A stretch of DNA of 64,000 bases. It comes from a virus (Duplodnaviria; Heunggongvirae; Uroviricota; Caudoviricetes). Where the stretch lies: IMG/VR virus record IMGVR_UViG_3300037524_001291; one strand, 5' to 3'. The translations under genes and the position numbers were made by a program. This document shows positions 1,202 through 63,149 of this stretch, one piece after another. The number at the start of each line of letters is the position of its first letter. The stretch's first letter is position 1. The notes under the pieces were generated by a model, which was given only the letters and a program-made list of their open reading frames with translations, did no database searches and was not told where the DNA came from.

Positions 1202-1453
1202 CTATCTAGACTTATTTTTTATAATATCATCATCATCTAAAGAAGATTCTTTGATAGATGCTCTTTCTATAAATTCAAGGCAACTAGGGCATTTATAGTT
1301 TATTTTTTCTTTTCTAAACTCCCTAATATTTTTTTCAAAAGGTATAAATCTTCTTTTCTGTTGTCTATTAGTACAACTATTTAGGGTTACTATATCCCAT
1401 TCAACAGAAGTACTTAATGCACTACATCTAGAACACTCATATAACTTACTCAT
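1202..1453 (-). CDS. Hypothetical zinc-binding protein
   Basis: CSRC and CPSC pairs; RBS AGAGGAG upstream. Confidence 0.75.
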   Translation of the reverse strand: MSKLYECSRCSALSTSVEWDIVTLNSCTNRQQKRRFIPFEKNIREFRKEKINYKCPSCLEFIERASIKESSLDDDDIIKNKSR

Positions 1454-1472
1454 AGATTGTCTGCTCCTCTAG

Positions 1473-1552
1473 TGCGGAAAGAGAGATTTGAACTCTCACG
1501 CTAAGGCATACGAGCTTAAATCGTATGTGTCTTCCAATTCCACCACTTCCGC
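1473..1552 (-). tRNA. tRNA-Leu(UAA)
   Basis: Acceptor GCGGAAG/TTTCCGC, anticodon arm TACGA-TTTAAGC-TCGTA, long variable arm, T-loop TTCAAAT. Confidence 0.93.
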
Positions 1553-1815
1553 ATATCTTATAATTTTTCTACTCAGAACTCAATAGTAAAAGTCTGATTC
1601 CATACCACCTAATATACAAGTACAAAAACAAGTATTAAATTTTCAAAGTCCATATGAAATTCAATTCCTTTTAAACCGTACCACAATTCTCACATCCATG
1701 TCAATATTTATTTTAATAATTATGTGATGGTCACACAGTTTTACACTACCATAAAAAATGTAAACTTAATAAAGGGTTGTGTACCCACAATTTTTAAAAG
1801 TTATATTTTACAGAA

Positions 1816-2400
1816 TCAACTTGTTTTAGGCATAAAGGGTGCATAAACATAGCTAGGTTCTATAAAAGTTGCTAATTTATCTAAACTCTTTGTAGTTTTA
1901 CTAAAACGGTTGGCATACGAACTGGCAACAAAAGAGTAAGGTTTAATTTGAGTAGGTATACCGATACCTTCAAAGTATCCTAGCATTTCTCTTATTAGGG
2001 TTCTTGTTGCTCCATTTCTTCCTACATCTATATGAGCTTCGATTTTAAATGTAGAGTCTTTACTTCCCAATAGAATTTCAGAAGTTTTTAGAGTAATAAG
2101 GTCATTAAGAGTACAAATAACCTCGTAAGTACTGACTGTTTCCATATGTATTTTTTCCCTAAGACTTGTAATTCTTCTAGGTTCTATGTGTTTATTAATA
2201 CAGCACCAAGCACCATGTCCTACTCGATGTATTACAACTCCAGTAGCAAAGCAGGTTTGTTGACCTATTAATTGAGAATCTGTACCTACCATTATTTTAA
2301 AATCTCCTCTAGGGGTTTTGTTTATAAAGTCTAAAATGTTTATTTCTACATCTTCGAGACTCATATTTTTCTGAGTTGAGTTAAAGAAGATTCTTTCCAT
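1816..2400 (-). CDS. RNase H-like YkuK/DUF458 family protein
   Basis: Motifs VGTDSQ, VIHRVGHGAW, EAHIDVG and IKPYSFVASSYANRFSK. Confidence 0.85.
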   Translation of the reverse strand: MERIFFNSTQKNMSLEDVEINILDFINKTPRGDFKIMVGTDSQLIGQQTCFATGVVIHRVGHGAWCCINKHIEPRRITSLREKIHMETVSTYEVICTLNDLITLKTSEILLGSKDSTFKIEAHIDVGRNGATRTLIREMLGYFEGIGIPTQIKPYSFVASSYANRFSKTTKSLDKLATFIEPSYVYAPFMPKTS

Positions 2401-2430
2401 GTTTTCACATCCTTTATTTTTTAATATAAA

Positions 2431-2469
2431 AAGAGCTGTTAAGTCAATTTTTAAGACTTAACAGCTCTT
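2431..2469 (-). terminator. Intrinsic terminator (perfect 15-bp stem)
   Basis: AAGAGCTGTTAAGTC / GACTTAACAGCTCTT inverted repeat, followed by a T-tract on the minus strand. Confidence 0.75.
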
Positions 2470-2679
2470 ATATCCAAGTAGGTTATTTCTTGTTAGGGTA
2501 TCCTATTTTGGAAATTTTGAGGATTAAGTCTATACCTATATATTTGTTCTAAGAGTCCTAATATCATGGCATAATTAAATATACATGGCAAAATAGATGA
2601 GCCTGTATCATAAGTATTAAAGCTATTAGAATTCTTATTTAACAATATAGTCATAAACTTTCCTTTCCAAAAATATATT

Positions 2680-2991
2680 TTATTCGGGGAAATCACTTAA
2701 GTATGTATCTAAGTCACCGTCCCAAGCACCCACATCTGTTTTCACTAACTCTGTTTCAGCAATATCGGCTAATAAAGCTAAATAACCGTCAAGCACTTCT
2801 TTAATAACAAGTCTAAAGTTTGTTATGTTACCGTATCTTGTTAGGGTAAATACTGTATCTCCCCCACTTTCTACAGTAAAAATATTTTTAATTTTACCAT
2901 TAGGGTAAGGCTCAGTAGTATAATCATATGTTATATCATATTCTTCGGTCAAGTATGTTACAGTACAAGTAGCTGCTGCCATAAAAATCAC
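2680..2991 (-). CDS. Hypothetical acidic protein
   Basis: ORF with AGGAGTG RBS. Confidence 0.75.
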   Translation of the reverse strand: MIFMAAATCTVTYLTEEYDITYDYTTEPYPNGKIKNIFTVESGGDTVFTLTRYGNITNFRLVIKEVLDGYLALLADIAETELVKTDVGAWDGDLDTYLSDFPE

Positions 2992-3165
2992 TCCTATAAA
3001 AAATAATTCTCACTAACTTGTATATAAGAAGAATACTTAAAACTTATAAAATGTATTTCAAAGACTACCTTTCTGTAATTTGTAGAGGAGGTCCTTCCAA
3101 TACTCTTAGCTTTTCAAAGACTAATTTAATTACATTCCAATAGTTGACCCTTTGAAATACACTTT

Positions 3166-3254
3166 GTGAATTACTCATGACTAAAGTCACGAGCTTCCCC
3201 TTCAATATACCTATTGGTACAAGTTTACAGGGGCTAAAGGGTAATTCCTACCCA
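3166..3254 (-). mobile_element. Orphan IS200/IS605-type right end / TnpB omegaRNA remnant (ends TTCAC)
   Basis: GGGTAGGAATTACCC hairpin, AGCCCCTGTAAACT, terminal hairpin CTCGTGACTTTAGTCATGAG and TTCAC end; no tnpB ORF adjacent. Confidence 0.7.
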
Positions 3255-3264
3255 ATAAATTTTA

Positions 3265-3397
3265 AGATACATGAGAATAATTAGGGTAGTTTGTTGTTAT
3301 CATAATAGGATTTGAACCCATTACAGCCAGATTAAATGTCTAGTGCTCTACCAATTGAGCTATACGATGGAAACTACTTCCTACACAGCATGTATCT
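3265..3397 (-). ncRNA. Y-RNA-like tRNA mimic Y1 (Lys UUU-like loop) in a long bulged stem
   Basis: 9-bp terminal stem, CUGUGUAGGAAGUAGUUU...AAACUACCCUAAUUAUUCU wrapper; inner D arm GCTC-AATTGGTA-GAGC, anticodon arm, T arm ATGGG-TTCAAAT-CCTAT. Confidence 0.8.
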
Positions 3398-3410
3398 ATA
3401 TCTTCAAATT

Positions 3411-3545
3411 ATAGTTAAGGAGGATAACTAGGGTAGTTTACTGTTATCATAATCGGACTTGAACCGACAACTAGTTTATTTTAGGAAAACTGTTCTACCA
3501 ATTGAACAATACGATGGAAACTACTTCCTACACAGCCTTAACTAT
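3411..3545 (-). ncRNA. Y-RNA-like tRNA mimic Y2
   Basis: 10-bp terminal stem ATAGTTAAGG/CCTTAACTAT, same wrapper as Y1; D arm GTTC/GAAC, T arm GTCGG-TTCAAGT-CCGAT. Confidence 0.8.
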
Positions 3546-3602
3546 ATTAAATTTTTAAGTGTAAAGAGGGATACCCTTCCCTCTTTACGATAATTTTGTG
3601 GC

Positions 3603-3778
3603 ATGATTTACATTACTACCGACATTTAATTTACTTGATCATATCTTAGTATGTTCACTCTACCATTAAGTTACCCCGCCATAGTTTATACTTACTACTA
3701 TTTTTAGAAAAAAGGCGAGAGACGGAATCGAACCATCACTTAACTTATCCGTCAAGTAAAATTTGATGTAGTAATCAT
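3603..3778 (-). ncRNA. Circularly permuted tRNA-like module B
   Basis: Order is T arm (GATGG-TTCGATT-CCGTC), acceptor 3' strand TCTCGCC, 33-nt linker, acceptor 5' strand GGCGGGG, D arm; closed by TTTACTTGA/TCAAGTAAA and ATGATT/AATCAT. Confidence 0.75.
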
Positions 3779-3803
3779 AGCCTATATTTAGCTTGTGAGT
3801 TAG

Positions 3804-3899
3804 AAATTAAAATTGACTGCGATGTGTCTGCCATTCCACCACATCCCGTCATATCGGGATGGAAGGACTCGAACCTCCAATAATCGCTTTTTTTAATTT
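3804..3899 (-). ncRNA. Circularly permuted tRNA-like module A
   Basis: T arm GGAGG-TTCGAGT-CCTTC, then CATCCCG-ATATGA-CGGGATG hairpin, then D arm GTG-GAATGGCAGA-CAC; closed by GCGAT/ATCGC and AAATTAAAA/TTTTAATTT. Confidence 0.8.
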
Positions 3900-3903
3900 A
3901 AGT

Positions 3904-4650
3904 CTAAGTTTTATCTTGACTCACAAAAATATACTGAAGTATGTTATTACCAATGTTCACATTACTAGCCTCTACATTATTTGCCTCTTCCCTAGCACAC
4001 TTAACAGCTGATGAAAACTTCTCAATCCTAGTCAAAATACCCTGTTTTATAGGTACAGGTAAAGCACCACTATACTTAACTGTATTCCAATATCCTACCA
4101 AAACATCATCACTAATTAACTGAGTTTGTGCTGGATGCTCCTTAGTAGCTTCTGATAATACTATAGGCTTTTGTACCTTTTTTGACTTGTGAGTTGTGGT
4201 TGTTTCCGTTTTATACTGTCCAGAGTTTACATCAAAAGTCCAATCCTCTGACTCATCTAATACAGGAAGTGCTTCTACAAATGACCTAATATCATTAATT
4301 TGCTTCTCTAAGAATAAAAGAAATGTAGCTGGTACACCACTAGCTAAACACTTACCCTCAACAATTATATCAGCTAAAGCATTACAATTAGCATAATCTT
4401 TAGTAGCAGTTATATCAAACATCTCAGTTAGGGTGGTACACAAACCATCTATTTGCTCAACTGCCGTATGAATAACCTTCTTTTTTTCTTGAGGATAGTC
4501 TTCCCCTTCTTCATCTTTTTTCTGATAAGTTTTAGTAAAACCATTAAACAGATCAGGTTTTAGGGATATTTTGTGTAGATCTGATACTGTAGCATATGAT
4601 CTTGATTTAATTCCCTTCTCAATTGCAATAACTTGATTAAGCTTTTTCAA
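3904..4650 (-). CDS. Conserved uncharacterised protein (KLNQ.IA.EKG.KS family)
   Basis: TTG start 7 nt after RBS AGGGGG. Motifs DITATKDYANCNALAD, PATFLLFLEKQ, EATKEHPAQ, GYWNTVKYSGALP and AVKCAREEAN match a bacterial DUF family I recall (not verified by search). Confidence 0.85.
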   Translation of the reverse strand: MKKLNQVIAIEKGIKSRSYATVSDLHKISLKPDLFNGFTKTYQKKDEEGEDYPQEKKKVIHTAVEQIDGLCTTLTEMFDITATKDYANCNALADIIVEGKCLASGVPATFLLFLEKQINDIRSFVEALPVLDESEDWTFDVNSGQYKTETTTTHKSKKVQKPIVLSEATKEHPAQTQLISDDVLVGYWNTVKYSGALPVPIKQGILTRIEKFSSAVKCAREEANNVEASNVNIGNNILQYIFVSQDKT

Positions 4651-4687
4651 TGTTTTTCCCCCTACTTTAAAATACCTCATTTATACT

Positions 4688-4723
4688 TGGTGTTGGGTTT
4701 TATATGGGAAAACCTTGTCACCA
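4688..4723. repeat. Repeated hairpin, copy 1
   Basis: TGGTGTTGGGTTTT...GGGAAAACCTTGTCACCA; second copy at 4938-4971. Confidence 0.7.
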
Positions 4724-4856
4724 ACAACCAGAAAAAACCTAAGTAATTTAACTAAAACTTTTCAAGTTTGAACTCTTACTCTCTCTTAGGTGTTACTTTT
4801 AGATCCTAAGAAGAATGAAAGGTTCTCTGCTTGTAAATATCATTTAAAACTACTTA

Positions 4857-4928
4857 TAGCACCGATTGGATTTGAACCAATGTTCTTTGGATTATGAGTC
4901 CAATGGGATACCACTTCCCTACAGTGCG
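4857..4928 (-). tRNA. tRNA-Met(CAU), initiator-like
   Basis: C1:U72 mismatch, G11-C24 pair, anticodon arm TTGGA-CTCATAA-TCCAA, T-loop TTCAAAT. Confidence 0.88.
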
Positions 4929-4937
4929 ACATAAATA

Positions 4938-4971
4938 TGGTGTTGGGTTTTTTAGGGAAACCCTGTCACCA
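4938..4971. repeat. Repeated hairpin, copy 2
   Basis: TGGTGTTGGGTTTTTTAGGGAAACCCTGTCACCA. Confidence 0.7.
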
Positions 4972-5006
4972 TAGAACAATAAAAACCCTACTACCACACT
5001 AATACT

Positions 5007-5101
5007 TTGAACCTCACATCACTAAAGTGAGATGATTCCTGCTTCACTGACCTCGTAACCTACTATCTCCACAGGCTTAAAATTCCGTAGTTCCTACCGT
5101 A
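5007..5101 (-). mobile_element. omegaRNA-only copy of the right end of the IS200/IS605 element at 53044-54823
   Basis: About 93/95 identical to 53044-53138; ends TTCAA; TTGAT immediately 5' (5102-5106). Confidence 0.9.
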
Positions 5102-5109
5102 ATCAACAG

Positions 5110-5290
5110 CATCTACCCATAGTAGAAATTGACAAATAAAATATGGGTCTTTCCCCATCTGTCACCTATATTAAACTGATTATTAGACTAGTGGTTCAGC
5201 CTTTGAAACCCATATCAGCTTGAGGTAGCTCCTTAACAGTGCCTGTGTCGTTGCTACAATCTTCCACCTACTTACATAGGGAGCACTTAG
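5110..5290 (-). ncRNA. Candidate structured RNA (unassigned)
   Basis: GC-richer non-coding stretch with several complementary segments (GCUCC/GGAGC, GUGG/CCAC, CUGAU/AUCAG, AUGGGU/ACCCAU). Confidence 0.35.
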
Positions 5291-5296
5291 ATGTAC

Positions 5297-5345
5297 TTAA
5301 GATAAAAGGATTCGAACCTTTTAAGTATCCATCTATACTATCTTA
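5297..5345 (-). ncRNA. Mini tRNA-like element lacking the anticodon arm
   Basis: TAAGATA/TATCTTA 7-bp acceptor, GTAT-AGATGG-ATAC D-like arm, AAAGG-TTCGAAT-CCTTT T arm. Confidence 0.6.
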
Positions 5346-5356
5346 TAAATATTTTA

Positions 5357-5492
5357 ACATGAAAGAGAATAACTAGGTACTTTGAAACCTCAAAGAGGCT
5401 CGTGTCGGAATTGAACCAACAAATTTTTTCTCCAAATGAAAACGCTAGACCATCTAGCAACGATGTAAAGTATTCCTACACAGCTTTCATGT
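5357..5492 (-). ncRNA. Y-RNA-like tRNA mimic Y3 (Gln UUG-like loop)
   Basis: 9-bp terminal stem ACATGAAAG/CTTTCATGT, wrapper CUGUGUAGGA...CCUAGUUAUUCU, D arm GCTAG/CTAGC, T arm GTTGG-TTCAATT-CCGAC. Confidence 0.78.
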
Positions 5493-5531
5493 ATTATTTA
5501 ATTTTCAAGGGTCTCAACTAACATCTCTCAT

Positions 5532-5561
5532 AGTATAAATCAGTGAGTTTATCTTTGTCAA
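5532..5561 (-). promoter_or_regulatory. sigmaA-type promoter upstream of the ncRNA island
   Basis: TTGACA-18 nt-TATACT. Confidence 0.6.
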
Positions 5562-5682
5562 TACCCTAAATATAAAATTTTTAAATTAGTGATGTTATCA
5601 TGTTATTTATTTTCATATGACAAAAACATCAGATTGTTGTTAGGCTCTAGTCTAACTTTCAGCGATGTTATCATAAACCATC

Positions 5683-5982
5683 CTACGCATAACTAAACCA
5701 AATAAGTTTAATACCTTCAGAATCAATAGGATTCGGTTCATCTGATGTATATTCTACAGAGAGTAGTCCAGCTACACCGTCAGAGGCTTTATAAATAATT
5801 CTTAGGGTTTCGTCTGTCACCCCTCTACCACATATGTTACCATCAACAGTGAACTCATCTCCTATAGAGCTATTTCTAAGTTCTTGAAAGGAAATATCTC
5901 GTGAGTAGGAATGTTCCCAATCACATTTTGTTAGGGTTATTGCTGATTGTTCTAGAATTACCTCAGTTTTCATTTTTATCAT
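5683..5982 (-). CDS. Hypothetical protein
   Basis: ORF with AGAGGATG RBS. Confidence 0.7.
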   Translation of the reverse strand: MIKMKTEVILEQSAITLTKCDWEHSYSRDISFQELRNSSIGDEFTVDGNICGRGVTDETLRIIYKASDGVAGLLSVEYTSDEPNPIDSEGIKLIWFSYA

Positions 5983-5987
5983 CCTCT

Positions 5988-6239
5988 CTATACATCCATA
6001 CTAGATTTACGTACCCTCTCCACATGCATTATTGGTTCATCTCTTCTATAAGTAAAATTGTATGATCTATGAATATTAAACTCATAATATAAAACCCTAT
6101 ACTCTTTAGCATCTCCCTCCTCTCCTATCTCTTTAAAAGGATGTACCCTTAAGATTGAACCTACAGGTGGAAGTGGTATGGGAGTATACTCCCATACCCT
6201 CTCCCCATCAATACATTTACCATCACATTTTATTAGCAT
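5988..6239 (-). CDS. Hypothetical protein
   Basis: ORF with RBS, tightly packed with neighbours. Confidence 0.7.
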   Translation of the reverse strand: MLIKCDGKCIDGERVWEYTPIPLPPVGSILRVHPFKEIGEEGDAKEYRVLYYEFNIHRSYNFTYRRDEPIMHVERVRKSSMDV

Positions 6240-6253
6240 TTTTATCGTCCTCT

Positions 6254-6487
6254 CTAATTTTTCTTATATTCCTCAAATAACTTTTTAGTGAAGTTTTCTG
6301 TTACTTCCTTATCATGTGAAGGACATATATCATCCTGTTCCATACCAAATAGGCTAATAGTCTTTCCTTCCTCATCTACTAACTTACCAACCCACCTACC
6401 ATTACAGTAACCACTGATGTAAACTTTGTATGAATATAAGGTAGCTACATCATGAAAACCCTCTAAATCTAAAATTTTATCTGACAT
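6254..6487 (-). CDS. Hypothetical protein
   Basis: ORF with GGGAGG RBS just downstream of a promoter. Confidence 0.75.
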   Translation of the reverse strand: MSDKILDLEGFHDVATLYSYKVYISGYCNGRWVGKLVDEEGKTISLFGMEQDDICPSHDKEVTENFTKKLFEEYKKN

Positions 6488-6525
6488 AATATATACCTCC
6501 CTAAAAATAAAATCCCCACTATCTT

Positions 6526-9256: not shown

Positions 9257-9562
9257 TTATTCTTTTTTGTTAAGTAGATAAGGTAGTCTGTCTATATAGG
9301 ATTTACACAGTACTATTTCACAATTAAGTATTAATTTAATTACTTCTTCCTCCTTTTCCTTCTCTTTTCTTGTAATCATACTATATAAATTACAAATTCG
9401 AAAGAAGCTCCTCCCAAAGTGTTGTAATATAATAGATATTTGGGTATCATTTTCACTAAGTAACTTCTCAGTACTACCAGACAAATCTGAGTAGGTAGTT
9501 ACTGAGTCTACATCAATTCTTAAAAGAAGGTTCTTAAGTAATCGAATTAATATTTTTCTCAT
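9257..9562 (-). CDS. Hypothetical protein
   Basis: ORF overlapping the primase stop codon. Confidence 0.7.
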   Translation of the reverse strand: MRKILIRLLKNLLLRIDVDSVTTYSDLSGSTEKLLSENDTQISIILQHFGRSFFRICNLYSMITRKEKEKEEEVIKLILNCEIVLCKSYIDRLPYLLNKKE

Positions 9563-10326
9563 AGTCCAAACCCCTCTGTATTTAAAGTATTGAAAACAAA
9601 AGACTCATAAAAAATCTTTCGGTACATATAGTCTTCTGGGTTATGGGATAATTCTTCTAATATTCCTAAGTCTTTATCTGTAGAGTATAAAGGCATTACC
9701 TCTATCTGTATTTTAGGGTTGAGGTCTTTTAATCTTTTTGTAGAGAGAGTTACCCCAGCTCTTCCCCCATCATCATTATCAAAAGCTAAAATAAATTTAT
9801 CTGTTAGGGTAGTAAGTACTTCAGCTTGCATAAGAGTTATATTACTAGTGAGCATAGCTAGTATATCTTTGTGTATAACTCTAAAGCTATCAGCATCATA
9901 AATACCTTCAGTAAGAATCATCCACTTTCCAAATTTAAAATCAGGATTTATAAGATCTAGTCCGTATACAGTGTAGAACATAGAATAATCAATAAACTGT
10001 TTAATTTTAAGACTTCTGAATACAAGTGATACAGGTTTTCCACCTATCTCATTAAAGATTACTAAGAACTCTCCATTATCATTAAAAAACTGTTTTTGGT
10101 TATCTGTAAAGGACTTCATTAGTTTTAGAGAGTGTAGTTCTGCCAAAGTACATACTCTATAATTAGAATACCCATACTTAAGAGCTAACTCAGTATATTT
10201 GTTGTGAGTTATTTTTCTTTTCTTTATAAACTCTGAAATAGGGGGAAGATTATCATACAAAATCTGTATGACCTCCTTCTTAGGGTGTATTATAGAGTTG
10301 TTTTCAGGTATTCCATGAAACTCCAT
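9559..10326 (-). CDS. DNA primase-like TOPRIM catalytic core (no zinc-binding domain evident)
   Basis: ILTEGIYDADS and ILAFDNDDGGRAG TOPRIM motifs. Confidence 0.8.
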   Translation of the reverse strand: MEFHGIPENNSIIHPKKEVIQILYDNLPPISEFIKKRKITHNKYTELALKYGYSNYRVCTLAELHSLKLMKSFTDNQKQFFNDNGEFLVIFNEIGGKPVSLVFRSLKIKQFIDYSMFYTVYGLDLINPDFKFGKWMILTEGIYDADSFRVIHKDILAMLTSNITLMQAEVLTTLTDKFILAFDNDDGGRAGVTLSTKRLKDLNPKIQIEVMPLYSTDKDLGILEELSHNPEDYMYRKIFYESFVFNTLNTEGFGL

Positions 10327-25969: not shown

Positions 25970-26566
25970 TTAAAGTATATCTTGTCGAATTAAAGCATCT
26001 CGGAGTCTTGCTGTTACTACCTTTCTTTCTGGAAAATCTATCTTTTCAATATCCTCAGTACCATCCAAGACAGTATCATCTGTTACTATTATATCTCCAC
26101 TTACCTCAGCAGTTCCTTTTATTATAGCTCTCCCTGACACTTTAGCTTTCCCTGATACAGTGGTTTGTCCTGATACACTAGCTTTACCAGACACTATACT
26201 TTGTCCTGATACAAGAGCTTTTCCATAAACTTTAGCGAGCTCATAGACCTGAGCATTTCCAGATATAATAGCATTCTCAGATATTTGTGCTTTTCCAGCT
26301 ATTTGAGCCTTTCCAAATACTTTAGCATTTCCAGACACTGTAGCGTTTTCAGTTACAAAAGCATTTTCAAAGACTTTAGCGTTACCAAATACCCAACAAT
26401 TATTATTTGCAGATATATTGGCTTCTTTTTCTATATATCCACCAAGGTCACCTTCTTTAATGTTACTAAAGGATTTTAAAGCTCTTATTCTTGTTAGGGT
26501 TCTTCCATTTTCATTTTTAGTATTGTCTTTTACCAGTTCATATTTATAATTCATATATAGAATCAC
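25970..26566 (-). CDS. Hexapeptide-repeat beta-helix protein (diverged tail)
   Basis: TLTRIRALKSF...GDLGGYIE head; A.V.G repeats. Confidence 0.9.
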   Translation of the reverse strand: MILYMNYKYELVKDNTKNENGRTLTRIRALKSFSNIKEGDLGGYIEKEANISANNNCWVFGNAKVFENAFVTENATVSGNAKVFGKAQIAGKAQISENAIISGNAQVYELAKVYGKALVSGQSIVSGKASVSGQTTVSGKAKVSGRAIIKGTAEVSGDIIVTDDTVLDGTEDIEKIDFPERKVVTARLRDALIRQDIL

Positions 26567-26569: not shown

Positions 26570-27289
26570 TTATAGAATATCTTTTACTCTAGCTTTTAAA
26601 TCAGAGAGAGGGGCTATTTCTCTTTTTATTTTACCGTCTAATTTTGTATCTCCCTCAATATCACTATATCCCTTTACATCAGTATCACCTGATATTCGAG
26701 CTTTTCCCCTTACTACAGCGTTTCCATGTATTGTAGCCTTTCCAAGTATATGAGCTTCTCCATATATCCAAGCCTTTTCAAATACTTTGGCTTCTCCAGA
26801 TAACCAAGCCTTTTCAAATATATGAGCATCTCCATATATCTCAACATTCTCACCGACCTCAGCCTCTCCATATACAAAAGAACTTCCATACACTTTAACA
26901 TTTCCTCTTAACTTAGCCTTATCATAAACGTTAGCATATCCGAATATAGATATCTTTCCAGATATACTAGCATTTCCAAAAACTTTAGCATTATCATATA
27001 CTTTAGCACTTCCTAATATCTTAGCTTCCCTAAATACCTCAGCATTTCCAAAGACCTCAGAGCTATTAGCTATTTGAGCATCTCCAAATACTTTAGAATT
27101 TTGATAGGCTTTACAATAGGGATATACCCAGCAGTTATCCGAGTGAGATAAGTTATCTTCTTTTTCTATATATCCACCAAGGTCACCCTTTTTTATACTT
27201 AAGAAAGTTTTTAAAGCTCTTATTCTTGTTAGGGTTCTTCCATTATATTTTATGGTATCATCAGTTACTAACTCATATTTTTCAAACAT
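26570..27289 (-). CDS. Hexapeptide-repeat beta-helix protein with C-terminal tag
   Basis: Tail KREIAPLSDLKARVKDIL. Confidence 0.9.
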   Translation of the reverse strand: MFEKYELVTDDTIKYNGRTLTRIRALKTFLSIKKGDLGGYIEKEDNLSHSDNCWVYPYCKAYQNSKVFGDAQIANSSEVFGNAEVFREAKILGSAKVYDNAKVFGNASISGKISIFGYANVYDKAKLRGNVKVYGSSFVYGEAEVGENVEIYGDAHIFEKAWLSGEAKVFEKAWIYGEAHILGKATIHGNAVVRGKARISGDTDVKGYSDIEGDTKLDGKIKREIAPLSDLKARVKDIL

Positions 27290-52900: not shown

Positions 52901-53149
52901 TTCTAAGTCAAACACTATATAATGCATCACTTCTTAATATCACCTTTCTCTCTCAAAGCAGTTTTATAAATATGTTCTAATCGAGCTAAAGTAAATAGGT
53001 AAGAAGTATGATTTTCCATAGTTTTTATTTCTTTAATAACACTTTGAACCTCACATCACTAAAGTGAGATGATTCCTGCTTCACAGACCTCGTAACCTAC
53101 TATCTCCACAGGCTTAAAATTCCGTAGTTCCTACGGTAGTTTCTTTATA

Positions 53150-54271
53150 TTATATTGCTATTAATCGTAATCCTTCATTTTTAATATTTATCGCTGCATT
53201 AATATCTCTATCATGTTCACTTCTACAGCTAGAACATATCCATTTTCGAACTGATAAATCCTTGGTTTCTTTATTTTGATATCCGCAGTTACAGCAAAAT
53301 TGACTGGATGGATACCATTTGTCTATTTGCACCAATGTTCTATTATACCACTTAGCTTTGTACTCCATCTGTCTAACAAATTCACTCCACGATACATCAC
53401 TTATCGCTTTTGCTAAACAATGATTTTTAACCATATTTTTCACTTGCAAACTTTCTAAACAAATAATTTGGTTTTCATTAATAAGTTTAGTTGAAAGTTT
53501 TTGGATAAAATCTTTTCTTTGATTGGTAATTTTTTCATGTACTCTATTTAATTTAATTCTTTGTTTGTGCCAATTTTTACTTCTTTTTTTCTTAGATGTT
53601 AATCTTCGTTGCATCTGTTTTAATTTTTGTTCTAGTTTGTATAAATGTTTTGGATTTTCAAATTTTTCACCTACTGAAGTAATAGCAAATTCTTTAATGC
53701 CTAAATCCACACCAATATAACTTTGATTCTGGGGCAACTGTTCTATTACCACATCCCCGCAACAAACTGACACACAATACTTGTTTGACGGTGATTTACT
53801 AATTGTGCAATTTAAAATTCTTCCTTGAACATCTTGTGATAATGCTATTTTTATTAATCCCAATTTAGGTAATTTTATCTTATTACCTCTGATTTCAATG
53901 TTATTATTCGTAAATGTTGTTTTATATGAATAATCATGGCTGTGTTTATTTTTAAATCTAGGAAACCCTTGTTCTTTATTGCCTTTTTTAACTTCCCTAA
54001 AGAAATTCTGATAAGCTTTATCCAAATCTTTAAGTGAGTTTTGCAGTGCGAATTTATCTATTTCTTTTAACCAATTTAATTCTATTTTTAGCTGAGTTAA
54101 ATCTGCCGAGCAAGCATTATAATTTGAGCTTTGTTGCTCGTTTTTATATAATTCAATTCTTTTATTCAGATAATAATTATAGACAAACCTACAAGACCCA
54201 AAGGTTTTAGATAATTGTTTTTCTTGTTCCTTATTCGGATAAATTCTATATTTATAAGCTTTCTCTATCAT
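53150..54271 (-). CDS. tnpB: TnpB RNA-guided nuclease
   Basis: KAYKYRIYPN; RuvC D (VDLGIK), E (CLESL) and D (DRDINAAINI) intact; Zn finger. Confidence 0.96.
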   Translation of the reverse strand: MIEKAYKYRIYPNKEQEKQLSKTFGSCRFVYNYYLNKRIELYKNEQQSSNYNACSADLTQLKIELNWLKEIDKFALQNSLKDLDKAYQNFFREVKKGNKEQGFPRFKNKHSHDYSYKTTFTNNNIEIRGNKIKLPKLGLIKIALSQDVQGRILNCTISKSPSNKYCVSVCCGDVVIEQLPQNQSYIGVDLGIKEFAITSVGEKFENPKHLYKLEQKLKQMQRRLTSKKKRSKNWHKQRIKLNRVHEKITNQRKDFIQKLSTKLINENQIICLESLQVKNMVKNHCLAKAISDVSWSEFVRQMEYKAKWYNRTLVQIDKWYPSSQFCCNCGYQNKETKDLSVRKWICSSCRSEHDRDINAAINIKNEGLRLIAI

Positions 54272-54283
54272 AACAAATTCACC

Positions 54284-54685
54284 TTATTTTTCTTTTTGAT
54301 TACTTATATAGTTTTTAATTTGTTCCTCAGTATTCTCACTAACCGTTGCTATAAAATAACTTGGATTCCATAAATGTCCACCCCATAATTTATTTTTTAA
54401 TTCGGGATGTTTTATAAATAATTTTCTCGCACTAATACCCTTTAAGCACTTGATAATATCTGGTATGTAGTGCTGAGGTGTACATTCTATAAGTAAATGA
54501 ATATGATCTATTTCATTCTCCATCATAATTATTGTGAATTTATAGTCTTGGGCTATTGATTCTAATAATTCTTTAAGTGAAGTCTCTACTTTATTTTCCA
54601 AAACTTTATGTCTATATTTAACACACCAAACTATGTGATATTGAATTGAATAAACGTATCCACGACCATGATATATATTTGCCAT
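54284..54685 (-). CDS. tnpA: IS200-type HUH Y1 transposase
   Basis: YHIVWCVKYR, DHIHLL, LWNPSYF, YI.NQ. Confidence 0.96.
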   Translation of the reverse strand: MANIYHGRGYVYSIQYHIVWCVKYRHKVLENKVETSLKELLESIAQDYKFTIIMMENEIDHIHLLIECTPQHYIPDIIKCLKGISARKLFIKHPELKNKLWGGHLWNPSYFIATVSENTEEQIKNYISNQKEK

Positions 54686-54851
54686 TTCTCACCTCTTTTA
54701 AACAATACCATATGATTTAGTTAAAGTCTAGTATATAAATCATATATTTTTGTATTTCAGATACCATACACAAGACCTTTGCCCTAACTCATGACTGAAG
54801 TCACGAGTGTGCGGTCAAATGAAATCAAAAAGGCTTCTAGGTTCAGGTCTT

Positions 54852-56372: not shown

Positions 56373-57587
56373 TTAACTATTTCTAAATTTATCGACAACT
56401 ACAACACGCTCCCCATCATCACTAAAACTAGTGTAAGCTTTATCAGCTCCAATATACTTACTTAAAACTTCCACAAATCTTGATATATCTAATACTTCTT
56501 GTTTTTCATCCTCTACAAAAGATATCTCACCATCTAGATGGTCTAAACATGTTACAGCAAGACTTACATTATAAGGTAATCCCTTAGCTTTTTCTAAATC
56601 TCTAGCTATCATTTTTTTAAAGTAATTTATATCTAATAAAGCATACCTTAATTTACCTTGAAATTCATTATATACATTGGTTAAATCTACTATCTTTGAA
56701 TAAGGTTTAATGTCCAACTCATAAGGGAGTGGTCCAGCACCATGACGAGTAAGATAAGGTCTTGTTACATATACAATTTCTATATCCCCATCTAAATAAT
56801 TACGTTCTTTTATAAGTTCCACTACATTCGATATACCTGTATTGGAGTGTGTTACATGAGGAAAGTTCTCATGATTTTGATCTAAGAGTAGACCTTGAGC
56901 CCCTTCAAAAATGATATGATTATAATCATCCAAACAACTTGAATCTACTGTTAGGGATATCTTTTTCAATTCTTCTATATCCAAAAGAAACCTACGTATT
57001 ACTCCATCATCTTCTAGAAGTTTAGTAGCCCATTCAGGTATTTCTTTTATTCCAAAATCTTTGATTTTATAAGTCATATGTTTATCTTTTATAAGTCTCA
57101 TTTTTTTCTCTAAACTTACCGTATCATATATATCATTTACTTCTATTTTATAATCGTCAATATGACTTCTTACTATTGTTTCATGTATACCGAAACCACA
57201 GCTACCATGTCTTTTATCACCTCTATCAAATTCTTTTATTTGATTGAGTATAATATCATAAGGTGTAGTTATCAAACAGTTCTTATCAACTAATAGAGAT
57301 ATATTAGGGGTTATTTTTACTAAGTCACTATACTCTTTTAAAACTCTTCTAGGATTTACAATAAAGTATTTTCCTAAGTAAGTTGGTAATCCTCTAAGAG
57401 TACCACAACCAAAACTACCAAAAACATGTCTATGACCTTTAGAAGTTACTACAGTGTGCCCTGCTTGACATCCACCATTAAATCTAACTACAATACCACC
57501 TTTTGCATTACGGGAAAGGTATTCAGTTACTAATCCTTTTCCCTCATCTCCCAAATTACTACCAATTACAACCTTAATATTTTTCAT
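56373..57587 (-). CDS. purA: Adenylosuccinate synthetase (divergent PurA-like)
   Basis: GDEGKG, RFNGGCQAGHT, FEGAQGLLLD, TRHGAGP. Confidence 0.9.
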   Translation of the reverse strand: MKNIKVVIGSNLGDEGKGLVTEYLSRNAKGGIVVRFNGGCQAGHTVVTSKGHRHVFGSFGCGTLRGLPTYLGKYFIVNPRRVLKEYSDLVKITPNISLLVDKNCLITTPYDIILNQIKEFDRGDKRHGSCGFGIHETIVRSHIDDYKIEVNDIYDTVSLEKKMRLIKDKHMTYKIKDFGIKEIPEWATKLLEDDGVIRRFLLDIEELKKISLTVDSSCLDDYNHIIFEGAQGLLLDQNHENFPHVTHSNTGISNVVELIKERNYLDGDIEIVYVTRPYLTRHGAGPLPYELDIKPYSKIVDLTNVYNEFQGKLRYALLDINYFKKMIARDLEKAKGLPYNVSLAVTCLDHLDGEISFVEDEKQEVLDISRFVEVLSKYIGADKAYTSFSDDGERVVVVDKFRNS

Positions 57588-57628
57588 AAAATTCCTCCCC
57601 TTAAGCATTAATACAAGAACCACTAAAC

Positions 57629-58066
57629 TTATGGATTAATAGGGTCTAGTTCATCAAAGAACCCTAGCCAATATTCTATTCTTTTATTCTCTTTATCTTG
57701 TGCCTTCAAAGCCTTTTCCGATACATAATTTACGGTATCATCCATAATAGTATCTACAATTTTTTGAGATATAGGGTATATAGTGTATACCTCACCCTCA
57801 GTAGAAGTAGCACAAGGTGCACAAGGTACTTTTAATTCTTTCATGGCTTTCTTGAAGTCTAAATTAGTAAAAGAGAATCCTAGAATCTCTTCAAAATAGT
57901 AATGAAAAGCATTACTATTGTGTTTTTTATTATATGAACCTGTAAAGTCTTTAGGGTCTAGATATTTAGTTATACATTTTTTAAGTCTAAACATCTTTTC
58001 CGAATCTATCTCTGGTATCTTACCCTCATCAGTTCCAATTTCAAAATCTATTGACATATCACACAT
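57629..58066 (-). CDS. Hypothetical protein
   Basis: ORF with GAGGAG RBS. Confidence 0.7.
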   Translation of the reverse strand: MCDMSIDFEIGTDEGKIPEIDSEKMFRLKKCITKYLDPKDFTGSYNKKHNSNAFHYYFEEILGFSFTNLDFKKAMKELKVPCAPCATSTEGEVYTIYPISQKIVDTIMDDTVNYVSEKALKAQDKENKRIEYWLGFFDELDPINP

Positions 58067-58129
58067 CTCCTCATCATATATTTTTAGGGTATGTTTCCAT
58101 ACCCTAAGCCCATTCCCTAAGTTTTAATC

Positions 58130-58318
58130 CTATTCCTCTGTTTTCTCTTCAACTTCTGGTGTTACTTCTGGTGTTACTTCTGGGATTACTTCTGGCATTA
58201 CTTCTGAGATTACTTCTGGTGTTACTTCTGGTGTTACTTCTGGCATTACTTCTGGTGTTACTTCTGGCATTACTTCTGGTGTTACTTCTGGTGTTACTTC
58301 TGCATTACCTTGTCCCAT
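58130..58318 (-). CDS. Low-complexity (EVTP)n micro-protein
   Basis: About 12 copies of a 12-bp unit; RBS AAGGGAG. Confidence 0.6.
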   Translation of the reverse strand: MGQGNAEVTPEVTPEVMPEVTPEVMPEVTPEVTPEVISEVMPEVIPEVTPEVTPEVEEKTEE

Positions 58319-58351
58319 GATAAATTCTCCCTTCTTAAAGTATTTTTTATA

Positions 58352-59293
58352 TTATTCAAAAGACACTACACTACCAGTGGTATTATCCACAGATGTTAGA
58401 GAATCTAGTGCTTTTGATACAACCAAACTGGTAGAACCATCCCAACTTTTAATAATACTCTCTTTCTCTACTCCAGCACACATTTGTAATATAGAGGTTA
58501 TAACTTCTCCCATTTTAGTATGGTCGGATAAGAGTATAGCTTTTTGACCTAATAAATCTCTCCAAGCTTTTATAACACTTTCAGCACAACACCCACTCAT
58601 ATGACTTCCCTCTTCAACAATCAAATGGTAAACATCATATTGTCTTGAAGCTAGGGTTAAAAGCTCCTTAGCAGTGTATCTATCTTGTTGAGGTTTGTAT
58701 CCTAAAACTTTCTCTATATCAGTACTTTTTAGATAGGGTGTTGGTTCTTCATCTCCTATAGTAAATAAGAATCCTTTCTTATTTCTCTTTTCAAAGCAGT
58801 CAATCCTAGTATGCATCCCAGCAAAGAGCCAAGCTAAAGCATAACTCTCATAACTATTACCACCACCACCACCTTCTAAATAGAGTTTAGTAAGTTGTTC
58901 AGCAATACGAATATCAGCTTCAAATTGAGTAATCTGTAAGGGTGATTTATCTCCAGCTTCTACATCACCAATACCCATGAACATGATATGAGGGTCTTTT
59001 ATAGGTTTTCTTGTATAAATCTCTGTAGCTAAGTTTGATAATCCTTGTCTTGCCATTGCTTCAAGAACCCTACTCATAGAGCCTGTAACATCTAACCCAA
59101 TAATAATAGCATTAGATTCTGGATTATCAGTAGAATCACAAGACTCTCTGATAGTAACTCCTTTAGGGTCTAGTTCATTTACTATAGCTTTTGAAGTATA
59201 AATATCCCCTACTGTAGCCTTACTTGATACATATGTTGTTGAATATGATTCCCAATCTTTTGGTGTCCATCTTCCCGAACCAATAACAATCAC
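58352..59293 (-). CDS. von Willebrand A (VWA) domain protein
   Basis: MIDAS LDVTGSM, GGGGNSYESY, FTIGDE. Confidence 0.88.
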   Translation of the reverse strand: MIVIGSGRWTPKDWESYSTTYVSSKATVGDIYTSKAIVNELDPKGVTIRESCDSTDNPESNAIIIGLDVTGSMSRVLEAMARQGLSNLATEIYTRKPIKDPHIMFMGIGDVEAGDKSPLQITQFEADIRIAEQLTKLYLEGGGGGNSYESYALAWLFAGMHTRIDCFEKRNKKGFLFTIGDEEPTPYLKSTDIEKVLGYKPQQDRYTAKELLTLASRQYDVYHLIVEEGSHMSGCCAESVIKAWRDLLGQKAILLSDHTKMGEVITSILQMCAGVEKESIIKSWDGSTSLVVSKALDSLTSVDNTTGSVVSFE

Positions 59294-59508
59294 TCTCCTT
59301 TTTTTGATAATTTTTCTAATTCTTTTTTAGCTAATTCTGATAGCATATAACCAGCTTCTTCACAGAAGTCATGTTGAACAAATAAACAAATACAAAAACC
59401 ATCTTTCTTATTAATACCAGTCCCCTTACAAAATTTGCAGTCTTCTTTAGGGTTATATTTTAACTTTATTTTTGGATGTTTTTTCTTTTTTTCTTCTAAT
59501 AGGCTCAT
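59290..59508 (-). CDS. Small zinc-finger protein
   Basis: CKFCKGTG...CIC...C. Confidence 0.7.
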   Translation of the reverse strand: MSLLEEKKKKHPKIKLKYNPKEDCKFCKGTGINKKDGFCICLFVQHDFCEEAGYMLSELAKKELEKLSKKGE

Positions 59509-59573
59509 AAATACCTCACTAAAAATTCATACCTCTAAAAACATATACGTAAAAACTCTAAATTTAATTTCTT

Positions 59574-60611
59574 TTAGGGTAATTTCCCTATACTTTTATA
59601 AAAATCTTCTATATCAAAAGACATAGATGTGAATTCTCTCTTACCAAAACTCTCTGTTAGAACCTTCTGCCAATTCTCATATTCTACCCTAGCTTTACCA
59701 TATGATACTCCTCTTAACCACTCACATAAGGGTTTTGGTATATTTCTATCTTCTATAAGTCTTGTCCCTGTTCTATCTCCTAAGAGTTCTCTTCCTATCA
59801 ATCTAATAGACTCTAAGTCAGTTTCAATACTCCCAAACTTACTATTTTTTATTTTGGGAGGCATAATAGAATAAATCTTCTCACTTACACTAATCATTTT
59901 CTCTTTTTGAGGTACAGTGTACCACCATCCACCTACAAGTAGACCAGAGTGATATTTAGGAGAGACAGTATATGTATCTAAGGATATACCATTATGAGAT
60001 AGTTTAGCATAGTCCAAGTAACATGATATGTTGTAGAGTGAGCTTAATATCCATGCTACATGTTTAGGAGATAATTTTCCATTATAAAACTCTAAGATAT
60101 CTTTGAGAAGAAAGAGGTCTAAAGATTTTGATAGTATTATTACTAGGGTTCCTTTCTTACTCTCAAAAGTTTCAAGTATAGTAGGAAGGTATTTTTCCAT
60201 CTCATTTTTCATTTTATCATTAGAATAAGTTAAATTTTTTATTCTGTTGATACCGTTCTCATACAATCTTTTATACTTCTCATCAAGCTCATAAGTAATA
60301 GAGTGGGTACTAATATAAATTTTCCCTAATTCAAACTCATGATAGTTTCTAACTTTTAATGAGTAGATTTTACCAAACTTAGAAGTAAACTTAATTTGAC
60401 CTTTAAGTACCCAAGTATTAGTTTCAAGCATATGAATACCCTCAGTATATAAAGCATTAACTTTGGCTATGATATTATTTGATTCTTCTGAATTTAAATT
60501 TAGATCAGGATGCCACTGTTTACAGTAGACTCTATACTCTTCTTTTATATTATTTTCTGTGAAAATATCTGACGGTAAAACAGCATTAAGTATTTCTGTA
60601 GCACTTTTCAT
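59574..60611 (-). CDS. J-domain plus degenerate protein-kinase-like protein
   Basis: WHPD J motif; HVAWILSSL..LSHNGI..GLLVGGWWY kinase-like C-lobe. Confidence 0.8.
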   Translation of the reverse strand: MKSATEILNAVLPSDIFTENNIKEEYRVYCKQWHPDLNLNSEESNNIIAKVNALYTEGIHMLETNTWVLKGQIKFTSKFGKIYSLKVRNYHEFELGKIYISTHSITYELDEKYKRLYENGINRIKNLTYSNDKMKNEMEKYLPTILETFESKKGTLVIILSKSLDLFLLKDILEFYNGKLSPKHVAWILSSLYNISCYLDYAKLSHNGISLDTYTVSPKYHSGLLVGGWWYTVPQKEKMISVSEKIYSIMPPKIKNSKFGSIETDLESIRLIGRELLGDRTGTRLIEDRNIPKPLCEWLRGVSYGKARVEYENWQKVLTESFGKREFTSMSFDIEDFYKSIGKLP

Positions 60612-60731
60612 CTATTTTCCTTCTCTCATTTAAAATACTCTCAAAAAATATAGATTAGTAGAGTAAATACTTTACTAATCTATACTTAAATTATAACATG
60701 GCATACTAAATATTATACACTAAAACCTAAA

Positions 60732-62348
60732 TTATTCAAATAATACCGATAAAGAATCTCTAGCAAACTCCCAAGCTCTTCTTTCATCTGAGAAAACTCC
60801 GTCAACACCACCAGTAAAATTCTTTTTCTCTACATCTAGTGTAATAGCAGTGTTTCCAGTACCACTAGCAGTAGCTGTAAAAGTTTTTCCTACGATACCA
60901 TTAATAGCTTCAGCTACTAGGGTAGCAGTGTTTAGAGAACTTCCGTCACCTTCTCTAAGGTCTTCTGAATTTACGACACTATCAAATCCAGTTCCACCAC
61001 CATGAAAAGCCATATTTAAAGTAGCATCACTTACTCTAGGTGTTTTATCTGTTAGGGTTAATGTATCTGTTAGTGCTGATACATCATACTCACCAGTGAT
61101 ATCTGTATCAGCTAAGAGTAGAGTCTCAAAAGCAGTAGCTACATCTGAAGTTGTAGTAGTAGAGCTTAGAACAACTTCGTAAGTAACAGGGGAAGTTGTG
61201 ATATGAGCTCCTGTTACTGTTAGAGTTATAGTTCCAGCATGAGAGTATGTACCTAAAAATGTGATACTTTCTGTTTGTTCTGTTCCAGCAAAAGGTGTTA
61301 CCCCTGTTCTTAGGTCTTCAGAGGAAGTTACATCATCAAAACCTGAAGTACCAGCGTCAAAAGCGATATTAAGAGTAGCATCACTATCTCTTTCGGTTTT
61401 ATCTGTTAGGGTTAATGTGTTAGTTAGTTTAGTTACATCATAAGCAGTAGTAACATCAATATCAATAGAAATTTGAGCGTACAGAGAATCTATTAAATCT
61501 GAGGTTGTAACTGATCCACTAAGTACTACATCATAAGTTTTAGGAGAAGTTAATAAATGTGTTCCTACTACAGTAAAAGTAACTGTATCGTCTCCTGAGT
61601 AAGTTCCAGTAAGAGTAATTTTTTCTTGTTGAGTAACACCTATAATAGGGTCTGCTCCAGAAGTACCATTATCTGAGTTTGGTATATTTGTAAATCCAGT
61701 GGGAGTGATACCATCAAAAGAGATATTAAGGGTAGCATCATTAGTTCTTTCTGTTTTATCTTCTAGGGTTAGGGTATTATTTAATTTAGTTACTATGTAT
61801 TCATCTGTAACATCCGTATCAACAGAAATTTGGCTATAAAAATCGTTTATGATATCAGAAGTTGTAACTGATCCACTGATAACTACATCATAAGTTTTAG
61901 GTGCATCTGTGATATGTTCCCCATCTACAGTAAAAGTTACTGTACCGTCCCCTGTATAAGTACCAGTGATAGTAATTCTTTCTTGTTGAGCTATTTTATT
62001 ATCAATAGTACTTAGAGTTACCAATATATCTTCATCTGTTAGGGTGGCTGATAGAGGTACTTCTCCCTCTTCATGGGTAACCTCAATTGTAAAATTATTT
62101 GCAAATTCTCCCTCTACATCAGATTCAATGGTTACAACACCATTCTCTCCAGAACCTATAGTAGTTGAGGCTTTTACAGGTGCTGTGTAAGAGGGTTCTT
62201 CTTTTTTAGCTACTTTATAAAGTAGACATGCACTAGATTCATCCCCAGCTTTAGCTCTAAGAATAAGGTCATCAATATATTGAACAGTAGGAATAGGAGA
62301 TGAGTGTATTGCTCCAAAGAGTTGAGAACATTTTTTGAATGAGAACAT
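60732..62348 (-). CDS. Thr/Asp-rich beta-repeat protein, probable virion structural (sheath-like domains)
   Basis: Three ~100-aa repeats starting QQE.IT.TGTY; ends FTGGVDG. Confidence 0.6.
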   Translation of the reverse strand: MFSFKKCSQLFGAIHSSPIPTVQYIDDLILRAKAGDESSACLLYKVAKKEEPSYTAPVKASTTIGSGENGVVTIESDVEGEFANNFTIEVTHEEGEVPLSATLTDEDILVTLSTIDNKIAQQERITITGTYTGDGTVTFTVDGEHITDAPKTYDVVISGSVTTSDIINDFYSQISVDTDVTDEYIVTKLNNTLTLEDKTERTNDATLNISFDGITPTGFTNIPNSDNGTSGADPIIGVTQQEKITLTGTYSGDDTVTFTVVGTHLLTSPKTYDVVLSGSVTTSDLIDSLYAQISIDIDVTTAYDVTKLTNTLTLTDKTERDSDATLNIAFDAGTSGFDDVTSSEDLRTGVTPFAGTEQTESITFLGTYSHAGTITLTVTGAHITTSPVTYEVVLSSTTTTSDVATAFETLLLADTDITGEYDVSALTDTLTLTDKTPRVSDATLNMAFHGGGTGFDSVVNSEDLREGDGSSLNTATLVAEAINGIVGKTFTATASGTGNTAITLDVEKKNFTGGVDGVFSDERRAWEFARDSLSVLFE

Positions 62349-62774
62349 ATAAAATTCCTCCTTTAAAATTAATTAAGTACTAATACTCTTATATATATCT
62401 CACTTAAAATTATTACAAAAAAATAAACCTTAAAATAGGTTTATTTATATTATAATCTATTTAACTTTTCTCATAGATAAGTATCTCTATTCCTAGCTAC
62501 ATACTCTGACTCTTCTTTACTTACCTTCCACCCCTTAGAAACTGAATTATCATAAGACCATATCCTAATATTTTTAAGTATACAAAAATGAAAAACACAA
62601 TAAAGAAATACCCAATGAAACCCCCTTACAAAATACAAGCCAAAACTACTTACCCCTAAAATCTCTCCTATAAAATCCCCTAAAGCAAAAACTAAAATAT
62701 CTACTAATCCTAATATCCCTGACTCATCTTGCATATTAATATCTGGCATTATTTTACCTCCCAATCTTAATATA

Positions 62775-63149
62775 CTACTCAACCTCAACATAATCAAAAC
62801 ATAAGGCTAGAACATCGTCATAACTTTTAGAAGAAGTTGCTAAGTTACAAAACTCCTCAGCTCTTTTATAAAGTCCTTCACGCTTTAGGGTTCTCATTAC
62901 CTTACCAATAATATTAAAAACATTTCCATCCTCTCCAACTAATTTACAAACAGGTTTTATTATTCCTAACATCATTTTATCCGTCTCACCTATAGCATCT
63001 ATCTGTTCTTCTGTGAGATAATCGCCTTCAAAATCAAGACACCCATCAGAACCAAACATATGAAATTTTTCAGAATCAATTGTACCCTTAATGTGAATTA
63101 CATCTCCAGAAACATACCTCTCAGTAATAACTACTTTAAAATCTGACAT
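62775..63149 (-). CDS. Phage hypothetical protein with C-terminal GEDGN.F.I.G domain
   Basis: ATG after AGAGGGGTG. Confidence 0.75.
   Translation of the reverse strand: MSDFKVVITERYVSGDVIHIKGTIDSEKFHMFGSDGCLDFEGDYLTEEQIDAIGETDKMMLGIIKPVCKLVGEDGNVFNIIGKVMRTLKREGLYKRAEEFCNLATSSKSYDDVLALCFDYVEVE

Follow-up and report, generated by a model that had tools for sequence, protein, structure and literature searches.

Why should one strand of a phage genome carry the same short word every few hundred bases, mostly inside genes? The question is raised by IMG/VR virus record IMGVR_UViG_3300037524_001291, a stretch of 64,000 nucleotides (nt) from a virus of the Caudoviricetes, referred to here as the window. 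A first-pass annotation, made from the letters alone, had singled out the hexamer TAGGGT as strongly over-represented on the plus strand and proposed it as a primase site. Our analysis shows that synonymous codon choice, and in part amino-acid choice, has been shifted in this phage and its close relatives such that one strand carries the word at intervals of about 400 bases. Such a strand-polar word probably serves to signal the priming of DNA replication or some other process that runs in one direction. Among the possible readers, the lagging-strand priming machinery is the one that we favour, as a tentative choice held at less than even confidence.

The window has a G+C content of 31% and a negative GC skew throughout, and essentially all of its open reading frames (ORFs) lie on the minus strand. 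It was extended through public metagenome contigs encoding identical proteins into a composite of 164,336 bases, which is handled below in gene orientation, the reverse of the window. Of the 206 ORFs called in the composite, 199 are on one strand, corresponding to the minus strand of the window. Judged by its gene content, the source is a novel, large myovirus-like phage with a genome of at least 164 kb; the genome exceeds the composite because the terminase, portal and capsid genes lie beyond the stretch that was reached.

Exact counting bears out the initial hand tally of roughly 100 plus-strand copies and 20 reverse complements: TAGGGT occurs 103 times on the plus strand and 27 times on the minus strand (130 in total). 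Strand-specific base composition predicts about 5.6 plus-strand copies, close to the five estimated earlier, and dinucleotide shuffles of the window yield 38.7 ± 6.1 copies when the two strands are summed, and never more than 58. The first plus-strand copy lies at 1382 and the last at 62886–62891, in agreement with the annotated span of 1381–62891, and the mean spacing of 603 bases matches the interval of about 600 bp suggested for primers. The hexamer itself is not the proper unit, however. The information-bearing core is the pentamer TAGGG, or CCCTA on the gene-sense strand, and its flanks are weak. An exact count and position matrix define a field of 153 plus-strand TAGGG sites between 794 and 63758 (CCCTA on the gene-sense minus strand), with a mean spacing of about 400 bases; 103 of these are TAGGGT and 71 are TTAGGGT. 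Within the window the skew rises with word length, the ratio of plus- to minus-strand copies being 71:5 for TTAGGGT, 27:0 for GTTAGGGT and 26:0 for TGTTAGGG. The sense-strand consensus of the word is ACCCTAAC(A). Across the composite, ACCCTA is found 268 times on the sense strand and 45 times on the complement, and ACCCTAA 135 and 7 times.

The enrichment persists under the codon-aware null model that the first-pass annotation had named as a possible refutation. In this null, synonymous codons are permuted within each gene, so that every protein and the codon usage of every gene are kept. For the 88 genes of the window, ACCCTA is observed 95 times versus 21.7 ± 3.9 expected (z = 18.8), and the highest value among 300 shuffles is 39. 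For the genes of the composite, 224 copies are observed versus 45.6 ± 5.7 expected (z = 31). CCCTA ranks first of all 5- to 8-mers in the composite, with 350 copies versus 91 expected, and extension in the 3′ direction raises the enrichment further (CCCTAAC, 71 versus 7.5; CCCTAACA, 46 versus 3.1). Any single substitution of CCCTA returns the ratio of observed to expected copies to 0.6–1.9, so all five core positions matter. The flanks show weak preferences that are alike in both main frames: A before the core, A and then C after it, and a disfavoured G.

The codon contexts of the word are more varied than the ACC-CTA pair to which many of the copies had initially been assigned. That pair accounts for 43 genic copies of TAGGGT in the window but is not the sole context, since 38 others read xAC-CCT-Axx; the remainder comprises five copies in the context xxA-CCC-TAx and 17 that are intergenic. 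In the composite, enrichment is seen in all three reading frames. Thr-Leu pairs are encoded by ACC-CTA in 107 of 398 cases (27%, with about 3% expected), and Asn, Asp, His or Tyr followed by Pro and a codon starting with A is encoded as xxC-CCT-A in 99 of 142 cases (70%). The CCC-TAx frame contributes 21 sites, compared with 53 Pro-Tyr pairs. The Thr-Leu dipeptide is itself over-abundant (398 versus 282 expected), and of the 822 CCC triplets on the sense strand, 409 (half) lie inside the word. Site density is 2.4 per kb in genes and 1.9 per kb between them, where the excess of CCCTA is modest under a conservative context-preserving shuffle (35 versus 22 ± 3.6). The opposite orientation is not depleted: sense-strand TAGGGT occurs 32 times versus 20.2 expected under the codon-aware null.

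Three other accounts of the word were tried and rejected. A codon-pair or dipeptide artefact is incompatible with the synonymous-shuffle z score of 31 and with enrichment in frames 0, 1 and 2. Evasion of Type III or Type ISP restriction, of the kind seen for EcoP15I sites in T7, does not fit a minority orientation that is not depleted and a majority orientation that is enriched five-fold. The third candidate is an antisense promoter of the sigma-70 type with an extended −10 element, which TGTTAGGGT matches by its letters (TGnTAnnnT). The sites carry no information more than three bases upstream, and they lie inside genes and point against them.

The word is laid out evenly along the genome and keeps a single polarity. 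Each 10-kb bin of the composite contains 20–40 sense-strand sites; the complement is nowhere dominant, and the polarity does not flip over 164 kb. GC skew at four-fold degenerate sites likewise keeps a constant sign across the composite, except in the last partial bin. For the spacing statistics, one array of 23 tandem copies was counted as a single site. Inter-site spacing is more even than random, with a coefficient of variation of 0.82 versus 1.00 ± 0.05, and none of 3000 simulations gave a value as low. The variance-to-mean ratio of site counts in bins of 1–4 kb is 0.52–0.57, and 6 of the 1-kb bins are empty where 15.5 would be expected. Counts per gene are proportional to gene length and under-dispersed, and site density is equal in the structural, replication and accessory modules.

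A local exception coincides with a mobile element. An IS200/IS605-type insertion sequence (IS) comprising TnpA and TnpB lies at 53044–54823 on the minus strand (Pfam OrfB_IS605/Cas12f1-like_TNB and Y1_Tnp). No plus-strand TAGGG occurs between 52338 and 54917, a gap of 2579 bases, and the earlier remark that the IS holds no copies is thereby upheld. Both IS605-type elements of the composite are without sites in the favoured orientation, and only three genes of at least 900 nt lack a site, two of which are the two TnpB genes. The window element looks like a recent arrival that has yet to acquire the word.

Some copies are clustered or repeated. A head-to-tail pair, TAGGGTTAGGGT, is found in the exact site list at 61764–61775 on the plus strand. 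One copy at 26483–26518 (plus strand) shares a 24-base context with three others, at 27230, 28142 and 38664. These four copies (the first at 26495) are not independent, because they lie in a shared C-terminal tag of paralogous β-helix genes. A second skewed 8-mer of the window, CCATATAC, is distributed 29:0 between the strands yet is not enriched under the codon-aware null; we think that its skew stems from the Val-Tyr-Gly (VYG) repeats of an eight-member paralogous β-helix gene family. The tandem array is located beyond the window, a short way upstream of the sheath gene (L015:5790-6010), and consists of 23 copies of the 9-nt unit TATTAACCC. Each unit contains the word, and the array is translated as (Ile-Asn-Pro)n. 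The gene bearing it differs in length between two strains, at 86 versus 187 amino acids (L015, L016).

The word is shared by close relatives. In three uncultured relatives from other samples, with tail sheaths 63%, 58% and 57% identical, the word again heads the list of over-represented pentamers or hexamers on the sense strand. Their sense-to-complement counts are 14:3 for ACCCTA in L144, 40:9 for CCCTA in L165, and 48:27 for CCCTA and 21:1 for ACCCTA in L146. Among about 30 sites compared in orthologous genes, only 6 keep the same codon position. The density of the word is conserved between relatives and its individual positions turn over. Near-identical contigs show few strain-level differences.

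At greater distance the word disappears. It is absent from about forty more distant sheath relatives, and none of the sheath relatives from a metagenome scan (at most 45% identical) carries it. Contigs binned with Aquificaceae also lack it. Tail-sheath relatives 34–43% identical were found on such contigs (L172, L173 and L175), and the wider phage family may include phages of thermophiles. The cultured Bacillus phage SP-15 lacks the word as well; it shares the tail module only and not the replication genes, with matches for 22 of 199 proteins. Queries of a viral contig collection with the helicase or the TOPRIM protein found no relatives.

These properties call for a reader that acts unidirectionally over the entire genome and depends on coverage rather than on a fixed position. 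Lagging-strand priming could supply it as follows. The word (A)CCCTA(AC) on the gene-sense strand would be a genome-wide, direction-specific signal maintained by selection. If replication forks move co-directionally with transcription over this one-orientation genome, as we assume, the sense strand would be the lagging-strand template. A DnaG-type primase, from the phage or the host, would initiate opposite the T of CTA and then copy CCC. The resulting G-rich primer, pppAGGG(U), would be stable enough in a genome of 31% G+C, whose C-poor sense strand would otherwise hold too few such sites.

The core fits the known preferences of such enzymes. CCCTA ends in CTA and overlaps CCC, so that it offers a pyrimidine-pyrimidine-purine initiation triplet, and both triplets are documented DnaG specificities. 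The initiation trinucleotides of Firmicute DnaG are CTA and TTA (PMC2978363), and Clostridium difficile DnaG prefers CCC, with CTA stimulated by the helicase (PMC5204125). The T7 primase is described as using pentamers of similar logic, to which the 3′ flank contributes (PMC12839067). The even spacing suits the initiation of Okazaki fragments, and a neutral opposite orientation is what the primase reading expects. The primase-site reading is thus supported in part, by survival of the codon-aware null, the position on the sense strand, the CTA and CCC triplets, the even spacing with equal density in every gene module, and the lack of selection against the opposite orientation, whereas a missing zinc-binding domain and the behaviour of T7 sites, both described below, do not agree with it.

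The window encodes one candidate for the enzyme, a 255-residue TOPRIM-domain protein (P0241) at 9559–10326 on the minus strand. It matches Pfam Toprim_2 (E = 2.3e-6) and PHROG 47, ‘DNA primase’ (E = 5e-13). The acidic motifs of the TOPRIM primase core recognized in the first-pass annotation are present, as TEGIYD (EGxxD) and DNDDGG (DxD), but the protein contains one cysteine and lacks a zinc-binding domain. A PDB sequence search returned only Aquifex DnaG (2au3), with marginal significance (E = 0.02), and no homologue was found among cultured phages. A single-sequence AlphaFold model, made with no alignment, was unusable, with a predicted local distance difference test (pLDDT) score of 34. 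The gene tables, which leave some 20 kb or more unsampled, contain no other primase family, and a host DnaG could serve.

Several observations weigh against a priming role. The sole primase candidate, the TOPRIM protein, is very divergent, and the neighbouring ORFs are, like it, without a zinc-binding domain. With every gene on the same strand, transcription and the presumed direction of the fork cannot be told apart. The phage also encodes proteins resembling UvsX, SbcCD and Dda, a set that suggests replication dependent on recombination in the style of T4; replication of this kind is not necessarily unidirectional. Among phages with pentameric primase sites and a single gene orientation T7 is the best known, and the pentamers that its primase recognizes are neither enriched nor skewed (187 versus 215); primase specificity alone is therefore not known to reshape a phage genome, with the caveat that at 48% G+C primase sites are already frequent by chance. 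Finally, the predicted single-strand accessibility of the word is not raised, the unpaired probability being 0.49 versus 0.52 for synonymously resampled flanks.

An alternative is a signal at the level of RNA or coupled to transcription, in which a host or phage factor reads ACCCUAA(C) about every 400 nt in the mRNA or the non-template strand. The factor could be a KH-type protein that binds C triplets (cores of the CCCT type are known targets of KH domains), a factor for antitermination or processivity that loads repeatedly along the very long one-directional transcription units, or an RNA-processing or stability factor. The polarity of the word matches the direction of transcription perfectly across 164 kb, its density reaches 3.5–4.1 per kb at 30–120 nt past start codons compared with about 2.3, it thins out within 30 nt of either end of a gene, and genes with at least one site outnumber the Poisson prediction. 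Counts nevertheless track gene length and do not saturate at one per gene, the equal density in structural, replication and accessory modules is unlike that of a class-specific regulatory element, and accessibility in RNA-folding predictions is not increased. We identified no reader protein, and found no known case in bacteria or phages of a 5-nt word in mRNA being used so densely. On balance, we consider an RNA-level reader fairly unlikely. A Chi-like function is, in our estimate, unlikely. Here the antisense TAGGG(T) would be read by a helicase-nuclease moving in the direction of transcription, either host AddAB/RecBCD or a phage enzyme. The enzyme would then stop degrading DNA and promote recombination instead, which would shield rolling-circle tails or the ends of the genome. 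Known Firmicute Chi sequences are AGCGG, GAAGCGG and GCGCGTG, the Bacillus subtilis site being a 5-mer, and the phage word is similarly G-rich, short, polar and over-represented. Its orientation would fit an enzyme that enters the old end of a co-directionally replicating rolling-circle tail, and the recombination proteins of the phage could use the product. Against this, neither ACCCTAAC nor AACCCTAAC is over-represented in ten candidate Bacillota/Clostridia genomes, from which the true host may differ, and the extended word is rarer than a reversed-word control in nine of the ten and similar in the other. The IS elements, presumably derived from the host, lack it, and SP-15, whose host has a known Chi, is free of any enrichment of the Chi type. 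Chi does not predict even spacing, and a density of 2.4 per kb is far above that of any Chi-bearing phage known to us.

Other polar functions of DNA seem quite improbable. The word could orient a double-stranded DNA translocase, in the manner of the FtsK-orienting polar sequences (KOPS; GGGNAGGG) and SpoIIIE recognition sequences (SRS; GAGAAGGG), which share AGGG with it, or it could be recognized by a phage enzyme that modifies or nicks DNA in a strand-specific manner. In favour are the uniform polarity and the fact that the phage encodes at least four DNA methyltransferases (several N6/N4 enzymes and one Dam-like). The density is 10–30 times that of KOPS or SRS, though, and the gene tables show nothing like FtsK or SpoIIIE; a modification target accounts for neither the enrichment nor the polarity, and nicks every 400 bases would fragment the strand that bears them. 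Least probable, in our view, is a non-adaptive origin in which a strand-asymmetric, context-specific bias of mutation or repair turns near-variants such as TCCTA into CCCTA, much as very-short-patch repair inflates CCWGG in Escherichia coli. TCCTA is indeed the most depleted neighbour word (141 versus 230 expected), and positions turn over between relatives. Its deficit of about 89 covers only a third of the CCCTA surplus of about 260, however, and spacing more even than random, the excess of Thr-Leu and an enrichment that grows with the 3′ flank are not what such a bias would leave.

A literature search found no precedent in phages for so dense a polar word. It is conceivable, although we hold it as doubtful, that a clade of large, uncultured Bacillota phages has evolved a form of ‘punctuation’: a polar word of 5–9 nt, occupying about 70% of the possible codon contexts at an even spacing of about 400 nt, and read by a phage-specific factor. 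Candidate readers are a TOPRIM primase without a zinc finger, together with a partner that supplies recognition, or a new reader of single strands or RNA. Polar over-represented words (Chi, KOPS and primase-triplet skews) organise bacterial chromosomes, and the word described here is frequent enough to reshape codon and even dipeptide usage. If the punctuation exists, it would amount to sequence-programmed lagging-strand priming or polar marking of a genome, for which we found no report in any virus. Should the word mark the starts of Okazaki fragments, this would show that primase specificity can impose a genome-wide constraint on coding, and the direction of replication in uncultured phages could be read from their sequence. 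If the word is instead Chi-like or read in RNA, it points to a so far unrecognized reader. Either way, a simple k-mer signature defines a phage clade.

The remaining contents of the genome give the setting of the word. Family scans of the window identify a superfamily 1B helicase, DNA methyltransferases, a PurA-like enzyme and a protein with an SLH domain, beside the TOPRIM protein and the IS605-type TnpB, and six tRNA genes are present. Genetic code 4 was considered for the window and rejected, as it makes the ORFs no longer. The composite adds structural genes (tail sheath, tube and baseplate), genes for replication and repair (family A DNA polymerase, ligase, a clamp-loader subunit with an intein, SbcCD-like proteins and a UvsX-like recombinase), and genes for a class II ribonucleotide reductase, a Ro60/TROVE protein and a sigma factor. 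Complete co-orientation of some 200 genes over at least 164 kb is unusual for phages of this size; SP-15 (222 kb) is nearly as co-oriented, with 288 of 300 genes on one strand. Close relatives are lacking for most proteins (the next-best match of the helicase is 30% identical), and the pointers to the host (TnpB, the SLH protein and the ribonucleotide reductase) are no finer than Bacillota/Clostridia. The PurA-like adenylosuccinate synthetase, at 56373–57623 on the minus strand, has best phage matches 37–43% identical, some of them annotated in databases as PurZ-type. Outside the window, the clamp-loader subunit is interrupted by its intein and the Ro60/TROVE protein adjoins vWA proteins (L010:17789-20221, L007:10001-11653); the genome also bears tRNA-like RNAs.

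Two further kinds of word are avoided. Under the codon-aware null, GATC is strongly avoided in the window and the composite (GATCC, 8 versus 75 expected; GATCT, 75 versus 192), although the phage encodes a Dam-type methyltransferase (MethyltransfD12) and at least three N6/N4 methyltransferases. The deficit suggests pressure from a host restriction system that cuts GATC. Long runs of A are avoided on the sense strand, AAAAAAAA occurring 8 times versus 74 expected in the composite, and AAAAAA occurs 5 times versus 166 in SP-15. This avoidance may reflect escape from transcriptional or translational slippage.

Set beside known systems, the phage word comes close to several without coinciding with any. 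The recognition site of T7 gp4 is 5′-(G/T)(G/T)GTC-3′ and that of Aquifex DnaG is 5′-CCC-3′. Like primase sites, the word is short and would be read in a single strand, the presumed lagging-strand template, and it combines a CTA triplet with templated 5′ bases that would give a G-rich primer; its weak 3′-flank preference recalls T7 primase sites in particular. Unlike DnaG and gp4, the candidate TOPRIM enzyme is without the zinc-binding domain that reads the template, and we know of no primase system with a four- to fifteen-fold genome-wide enrichment achieved through codon choice. With the Chi sites of RecBCD and AddAB it shares the character of a polar, G-rich, over-represented oligomer of 5–8 nt, and, if functional, it would depend on orientation toward a travelling enzyme; it differs in that it belongs to a phage and not to a chromosome, has a density of about 2.4 per kb and lies on the strand antisense to the genes. 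KOPS and SRS resemble it in strong strand skew (up to 27:0 for the window 8-mers), uniform polarity and an AGGG core. The phage word has a 5-nt core and is at least ten times denser, with no dif-like point of convergence and no translocase gene seen. The stoperators of cluster A mycobacteriophages are also asymmetric sites that lie across a phage genome in a single orientation relative to transcription. They measure 13–14 bp, number about 25–35 per genome and are mostly intergenic, whereas the word described here has a 5-bp core and about 390 sites, most of them inside genes.

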